This document shows, one piece after another, positions 1 through 422 of a stretch of DNA of 64,000 nucleotides. The notes under the pieces are model-generated. The model was not told the DNA's origin and made no database searches. It saw only the letters and a list, made by a program, of their open reading frames with translations. Both the position numbers and the translations under genes were made by a program. How positions within the stretch are numbered: the stretch's first letter is position 1; every line of letters starts with the position of its first letter. Source of the stretch: Escherichia coli (GTDB taxonomy: Bacteria > Pseudomonadota > Gammaproteobacteria > Enterobacterales > Enterobacteriaceae); NCBI RefSeq assembly GCF_003019035.1, contig NZ_CP027447.1, one strand, 5' to 3'.

Positions 1-422
1 ATCATTAATGCTTTATGATGAAATGTTATGGTTTCGGGTTGATATGTTGCTATCAACTCTTTGACATGCGCGGCGCCGAATTCATTGCTGCCAGCACCAT
101 TCATGATATTCGTTAACCCAGGGTAGGCATCAATAAGTGCAGCTTCAACTTCGTACGCCGTCTTTTCATCAGTCATTCCGTGTCGATGGATGACATGGAT
201 AACTTCAAGTCCTGCTAACCTTATTTCTCTAATTTGCTTTAGCTTGTTGCTCAGTAACTCGTCATCATCAGTCGCTGCCACTTCACCGCGCATATGGGCA
301 AATACGCGGTTACCTTTGCCTTTCCCTACATAGAAGGTGCTTCCGTCCCTCGGATCAATCAATCGGTATACATACCAGCCAAGGTGTTCAATTACTCCAG
401 AAGGAAACTCAGTAATATCCAT
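1..422 (-). CDS. GIY-YIG-like nuclease domain protein, N-terminal 140 aa only (gene continues beyond window start)
   Basis: Minus-strand ORF starting at ATG 422-420 and open to position 1; not in the ORF track because no stop lies in the window. My translation: [43 protein letters not shown]..., matching the GIY...YIG...R...H pattern. Family assignment is by motif only. Confidence 0.5.

Follow-up and report, generated by a model that had tools for sequence, protein, structure and literature searches.

A CMoRE gene at the left edge of the window

The window analysed here is a 64,000-nucleotide stretch of E. coli contig NZ_CP027447.1. At its left edge, an open frame of 140 codons with an ATG start was translated on the minus strand from position 422 to position 1, where it continues past the window edge. 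A first-pass annotation, made from the letters alone, had described a GIY-YIG-like gene of which only 140 aa lie in the window, and both points were borne out by re-translation and by profile matches. The 140-aa fragment scored 56.1 bits (cut-off 27) against the Pfam LEM-3-like GIY-YIG domain (PF22945), a LEM-3/ANKLE1-like match that denotes membership at the domain level only, and just 15.9 bits against the generic GIY-YIG Pfam model. In PADLOC it matched one family, PD-T4-3 (PDLC04031), at E = 1.4e-77 and over profile positions 1-139 of 256. The Pfam score and the PADLOC E-value together exclude a chance open reading frame; an NCBIfam search gave no model for the GIY-YIG protein.

A megablast search of window positions 1-3000 against 5426 complete E. 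coli genomes returned eight chromosomes that match the whole query at 99.7-100% identity. Recovery of the full gene, proposed in the first-pass annotation together with a domain search, was achieved from one of these, E. coli EC7, which is 100% identical over the queried segment. The EC7 gene comprises 257 codons on the minus strand (L001:11649-12422) and is annotated WP_000355484.1. The domain search yielded the GIY-YIG match to PF22945 and an end-to-end match to PADLOC PD-T4-3, in which residues 1-255 of the full-length protein cover profile positions 2-255 of 256 (E = 1.9e-139). Against PDB sequences, phmmer aligned the full-length protein with 9U75/9U8D from O157:H7 (E = 1.9e-171, 4 differences in 256 aligned residues) and with 9U7U/9U7Z from APEC O1 (E = 5.4e-150), all of them entries titled 'GIY-YIG domain-containing protein'. 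These structures come from the study that renamed PD-T4-3 as CMoRE, for Cytosine Modification Restriction Endonuclease (Nat Commun 2026;17:1920; PMC12923530).

Judged from its sequence, the gene at the window edge belongs to the CMoRE (PD-T4-3) family and encodes the first 140 of the protein's 257 aa (Table 1). Like the known CMoRE proteins of O157:H7 and APEC O1, and of ECOR68, from which the first was obtained, the full-length protein recovered from EC7 has 257 aa and two domains, tyrosines at 17, 19 and 31 and an acidic loop at 52-55, and it is encoded by a single gene borne on a prophage in E. coli. The full-length protein of the window's allele is identical to 9U75 at 252 of 256 aligned residues; what sets it apart from the O157:H7 CMoRE is four substitutions and the adjacent retron. 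The family identity confirms the earlier proposal of a second defence gene. The gene is thereby a member of an already known family and an ordinary find, for which the proper label is CMoRE/PD-T4-3 type IV restriction endonuclease and not 'LEM-3-like GIY-YIG domain protein' or retron partner. We presume the copy in the source genome to be intact and expressed, its C-terminal part judging from the eight genomes with the same junction.

Table 1. Features identified at the left end of the window.
Feature	Position	Strand	Basis
CMoRE / PD-T4-3 gene, 5′ part (codons 1-140 of 257; whole GIY-YIG nuclease domain)	1..422	-	Pfam, PADLOC, EC7 full gene
CMoRE upstream region, travels with the gene	423..640	-	96% conserved to 615 even in O157:H7
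Conserved spacer between two independent cargo slots	640..805	.	BLAST breakpoints
Retron non-coding RNA gene (msr-msd), no part of the GIY-YIG gene's system	979..1114	+	Inverted repeat, conservation
RT-Toprim fusion gene, retron Ec67 (Eco2) family, GTG start	1134..2969	+	NCBIfam, PADLOC
Last 46 nt of tRNA-Thr (thrW), ends CACCA, right-hand attachment-site repeat	3299..3344	+	Homology

Conservation of the nuclease domain and published activity of CMoRE

CMoRE has been described as a single-component, type IV modification-dependent endonuclease whose N-terminal GIY-YIG domain cleaves DNA and whose C-terminal domain senses 5hmC/5ghmC (PMC12923530). Its motif is given as 'GIYxY-YIG', with tyrosines Y17, Y19 and Y31 (PMC12923530), and in the window translation these tyrosines stand at exactly the published positions, within G15-W16-Y17-V18-Y19-R20 and F30-Y31-V32-G33. 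The CMoRE active site is covered by a lid of four successive acidic residues; with these changed to alanine, the enzyme also cleaves ordinary DNA and becomes toxic (PMC12923530). The corresponding loop reads D52-D53-D54-E55 in the window, DDDD in O157:H7 and DDDE in APEC O1. Over residues 1-140, T51/A and E55/D are the sole differences from the active 9U75 protein, the remaining two of the four substitutions, Q/K and N/H, being located in the C-terminal domain; all other Arg and Glu residues of the nuclease domain are therefore retained. Loss of the catalytic Arg/Glu, which had been named beforehand as the observation that would speak against a GIY-YIG nuclease, was thus not seen. From the residue pattern we take R39, E93 and N105 to be the probable canonical GIY-YIG residues, a reading of our own, as the published text carries no residue numbers for them (PMC12923530).

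The C-terminal domain is encoded outside the window; EC7 and the other seven chromosomes matching window 1-3000 have it in a form near-identical to that of 9U75. A Pfam search at E<=10 found no domain in residues 110-257 of the full protein, in agreement with the statement of the CMoRE authors that the C-terminal fold is without known relatives (PMC12923530), and no NUMOD/IENR or other homing-type DNA-binding domain was detected in the full protein. The catalytic fold and the Tyr/Tyr/Arg/Glu/Asn constellation are shared with I-TevI-type homing endonucleases and with the N-terminal domain of UvrC, which the authors report as the closest structure to CMoRE (PMC12923530). CMoRE departs from these in the additional tyrosine of its GIYxY motif, in the acidic lid inserted into the nuclease domain and in a C-terminal domain that senses modification instead of reading sequence, and its role is defence, whereas theirs is mobility or repair.

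The published protein forms a dimer or tetramer and lowers the plating of T2, T4 and T6 by about five orders of magnitude, and it defends when cloned alone (PMC12923530). The C-terminal domain of 9U75 binds 5hm-dCTP, and both restriction of hmC/ghmC phages and in vitro cleavage of modified DNA were reported for the O157:H7, APEC O1 and Klebsiella proteins (PMC12923530). Activity against Tevenvirinae has also been documented in a native host, which is sensitised by deletion of the gene (bioRxiv 10.1101/2024.12.20.629700), and a 48%-identical homologue is modification-dependent and active on Mu DNA as well (PMC12366544).

Prophage setting and the slot behind Pin

The gene order in EC7 is tail sheath, tube, tape measure, baseplate genes, ymfQ, tail-fibre genes, pinE, CMoRE, retron and then chromosome, with CMoRE on the strand opposite to pinE. 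The Pin invertase likewise comes after CMoRE in A30, in O157:H7 TW14359 and in 54 of 79 loci on IMG/VR viral contigs. The cryptic prophage e14 of K-12 ends with ymfQ-stfP-tfaP-tfaE-stfE-pinE-mcrA-attR, so that mcrA and CMoRE both come directly after pinE and CMoRE can be said to occupy the mcrA slot at the right prophage end. The two differ in that mcrA is co-directional with pinE and the CMoRE gene is opposite to it, and in that McrA is annotated as methyl-directed type IV and CMoRE is hmC-directed. McrA is, we assume, an HNH nuclease with a fold different from that of CMoRE.

Three unrelated nucleases were observed at the post-Pin position: McrA (K-12 e14, L008:4686-6180), a GmrSD_N + GmrSD_C protein (TST3 and PK8276; L002:3583-5697) and CMoRE, the last in window 1-422, EC7 (L001:11037-12422), O157:H7 and many others. 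The GmrSD-family (DUF262/DUF1524) gene takes CMoRE's slot in TST3 and PK8276 and is divergent from the same retron; its domains are unrelated to those of CMoRE and its product, at 629 aa, is more than twice the size. The GmrSD family restricts glucosyl-hmC DNA. It looks as though the slot behind Pin is set aside for enzymes that attack modified DNA.

The right-hand boundary of the element is marked by a partial thrW gene (Table 1). In genomes without the island, homology begins inside the intact tRNA, downstream of proA, and ARAGORN found no complete tRNA in window positions 1-6000. Since the thrW 3′ fragment lies beyond both genes, CMoRE and the retron form the final cargo of a thrW-integrated element, just ahead of its right attachment site. 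Past position 3398 (3398-3781) the window departs from EC7: an integrase remnant leads straight to yagU (3942-4556), whereas EC7 has a LysR fragment and paoABCD, which the window lacks.

The neighbouring Ec67-family retron

The gene divergent from CMoRE scored 742 bits (cut-off 450) against the NCBIfam model retron_Ec67_fus ('retron Ec67 family RNA-directed DNA polymerase/endonuclease') and matched PADLOC RT-Toprim_I-C, described as 'single gene', at E = 4.8e-222. Compared with the Retron Ec67 protein of known structure (E = 8e-137), it has many substitutions, by which measure the RT is a member of the Ec67 family and not canonical Eco2. The GTG/ATG at position 1134 is conserved, which supports the annotated RT start.

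Upstream of the RT, a perfect 12-nt inverted repeat (982-993 / 1103-1114) bounds a non-coding RNA block of about 136 bp. The block is near-invariant in loci whose RT is 74-80% identical, and its flanks diverge; variation within it is seen in the central segment only (approximately 1052-1080). The predicted RNA fold is closed by the repeat, with a z-score of only -1.9. Window 1-3500 gave no match to any Rfam family at E<=1, retron RNA included, and the non-coding RNA was located through the inverted repeat and its conservation instead.

Eco2 has been characterised as a minimal retron: its only protein, an RT-nuclease, is caged by the retron's msDNA and needs no partner; the phage nuclease DenB nicks the msDNA, whereupon Eco2 is activated and tRNAs are cleaved (PMC12916289). 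It defends against T2 and T4, and T2 escapes by denB mutations (PMC12916289). The retron at this locus is an independent, self-sufficient, single-protein defence system.

Mosaic structure of the intergenic region

In the first-pass annotation the two genes shared a divergent intergenic region of 700 bp. The divergence holds, with 711 bp between the genes (423-1133), but the notion of a single shared region gives way to a mosaic delimited by BLAST breakpoints. Local BLAST placed the end of CMoRE-side homology at 800-809 relative to CMoRE-only genomes and at 615 for O157:H7, and the start of retron-side homology at 640 (GmrSD context) or 782 (lambdoid context), with its end at 3043-3398. Given these separate breakpoints on the CMoRE side and the retron side, the spacer is a junction of separately exchanged modules: the left cargo is exchanged at about 640 and the right cargo at about 782-805, and the approximately 160 bp between them (640-805) are common to islands with CMoRE and the retron, GmrSD and the retron, or CMoRE and other cargo. 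An Rfam search of this spacer gave no match. We also noted that positions 626-711 match the ykgJ-ecpE intergenic region at 81% (EC7, L001:22319-22403).

The native CMoRE promoter presumably lies within the segment that travels with the gene (423-640). A sigma-70 promoter scan of positions 423-800 returned no site for the CMoRE gene, and no strong Shine-Dalgarno sequence was seen upstream of its start. Directly upstream of the start codon there is an imperfect inverted repeat of 17 nt (424-440 / 457-473; 76% complementary, 16 nt apart).

Distribution of CMoRE and the RT in E. coli genomes and viral contigs

The CMoRE gene, at a threshold of at least 95% DNA identity, is present in 837 of the 5426 complete E. 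coli genomes (822 at a coverage of at least 80%). The RT allele is present in 19 (18 full length). The two genes adjoin in eight genomes. Because the 3-kb segment is 99.7-100% identical among these, the eight pairings were counted as one event, and they probably do descend from a single assembly. The other ten RT copies occur in two further contexts: beside GmrSD in four genomes (for example TST3 and PK8276), where the 629-aa GmrSD_N + GmrSD_C protein replaces CMoRE, and in a lambdoid prophage in six (for example H6), where the retron lies between a DUF977 gene and hokD. In CMoRE-only islands, the place of the retron is taken by a hypothetical protein and an Mrr-like nuclease (A30), an AraC regulator (O157:H7 TW14359) or, at the same chromosomal site, a class-3 lipase (FDAARGOS_1277).

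Viral contigs in IMG/VR contributed 79 CMoRE loci with proteins 99-100% identical, 71 of them with at least 1.5 kb of upstream sequence. None of the 79 contains the RT, and CMoRE was found in none of eight IMG/VR loci with the RT (74-99% identical). Where the upstream sequence extends to 2.8 kb or more (50 loci), the neighbours fall into 16 clusters, none like the retron of the window; 22 of these loci have a C-5 cytosine methylase, and the other kinds of neighbour include a BRO-N protein, an AraC regulator, a protein kinase-like gene and a trypsin-like peptidase. With neighbours that vary in both E. coli genomes and viral contigs, CMoRE is a single-component system that has no conserved partner. 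The C-5 cytosine DNA methylase is the commonest neighbour on the divergent side, lying 0.8-2.8 kb upstream in 22 of the 50 loci (L011 and 21 others), a curious companion for an enzyme that discriminates cytosine modifications.

Proposed function and alternative readings

We hold with high confidence that positions 1-422 encode the nuclease domain of a CMoRE that is prophage-end cargo and independent of the retron. The family, the motifs, the context and the lack of co-occurrence were computed here, and the biochemical mechanism is taken from the literature on the proteins of O157:H7 (4 of 256 residues different) and APEC O1 (somewhat more). Following that literature, the C-terminal domain would bind DNA containing 5-hydroxymethyl- or glucosyl-hydroxymethyl-cytosine, the GIYxY-YIG N-terminal domain would then degrade the modified DNA, and the acidic loop over the active site, here D52-E55, would exclude ordinary host DNA; the expected outcome is restriction of T2, T4 and T6 by approximately 10^5-fold. 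CMoRE would belong to the right-end cargo of a prophage of e14/Mu-like type integrated at thrW, straight after the Pin tail-fibre invertase, and the divergent Ec67-family retron a second, mechanistically independent cargo module in the next slot, so that the two would have a location in common and not a mechanism. That CMoRE and the retron are neighbours is an accident of how the island was put together.

It is unlikely, in our estimation, that CMoRE and the retron, each independent in mechanism, were selected together as a layered anti-T-even module in which CMoRE would hit hmC DNA and the retron would sense DenB, a dC-specific nuclease of the same hmC lifestyle. The target range of CMoRE (T2, T4 and T6; PMC12923530) would fit such a module, as would protection by Eco2 against T2 and T4 with T2 escape through denB (PMC12916289) and the choice of GmrSD, another family for modified DNA, as the alternative left-slot cargo beside the same retron. 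However, the pairing is rare and probably one event, the RT departs from canonical Eco2 by many substitutions, and the retron also resides in a lambdoid prophage without an adjacent type IV enzyme. We would also give little credence to a model in which the prophage end consists of two exchangeable defence slots about the spacer at 640-805, the left one reserved for modification-dependent nucleases (McrA, GmrSD and CMoRE), with the pairing of CMoRE and retron selected; McrA of K-12 e14 enters this scheme by its position after pinE.

The first-pass annotation also raised the option of a partnership between the GIY-YIG protein and the RT; that the protein serves the RT-Toprim retron as accessory or effector in a two-gene system we reject as very improbable. 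In favour of it are the divergent arrangement across 711 bp and the adjacent CMoRE in 8 of 18 genomes that have the RT allele at full length, above a background of 15%. A retron accessory would be expected to co-occur consistently with the RT and its non-coding RNA, but the co-occurrence analysis that had been proposed found no such consistent pairing in the 5426 E. coli genomes or the viral contigs: only 8 of approximately 822 genomes with full CMoRE have the RT beside it, the RT exists without CMoRE next to GmrSD and in a lambdoid prophage, and the viral contigs gave 0/79 and 0/8. The intergenic region is moreover mosaic, each module having breakpoints of its own, PADLOC lists RT-Toprim_I-C as a single gene, and CMoRE (PMC12923530) and Eco2 (PMC12916289) each protect when cloned alone.

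In isolated phage genomes, tblastn found nothing closer to the E. coli gene than homologues of 32-45% identity. Among these, jumbo phages of approximately 250-285 kb encode full-length CMoRE homologues with both domains (38-45% identity over 97-99% of the protein), for example Serratia phage Moabite (NC_048792.1:6406-7161), Pseudomonas phage OBP and Klebsiella phage N1M2, which were deposited as 'homing nuclease'. These homologues may be weapons against co-infecting hmC-modified phages.

The remaining suggestion, a homing-endonuclease-like passenger, that is, a selfish I-TevI-like GIY-YIG enzyme without a defence role, has the catalytic domain and the 'putative homing nuclease' label of the jumbo-phage homologues in its favour and is nevertheless hardly credible, and we reject it on domain content and context: such an enzyme should carry a sequence-reading C-terminal domain and lie in an intron or between conserved phage genes, whereas residues 110-257 are empty in Pfam, with no NUMOD/IENR or other homing DNA-binding domain, the C-terminal domain of the near-identical protein binds 5hmC and the enzyme is autoinhibited on unmodified DNA (PMC12923530), the gene is cargo fixed in position after pin while its neighbours vary highly, and its deletion sensitises the native host to Tevenvirinae (bioRxiv 10.1101/2024.12.20.629700).

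With the locus read as a CMoRE gene beside an independent retron, the left edge of the window falls within a prophage integrated at thrW, and two independent anti-phage systems are packed into the final 3.3 kb of that prophage. The importance of the find beyond correct annotation is small, and its only mildly new points concern context, namely the post-pin slot for modification-dependent nucleases and the two-slot mosaic. They make a small addition to knowledge of defence hot spots: the post-Pin site of e14-like prophages is occupied repeatedly by unrelated enzymes directed against modified phage DNA.
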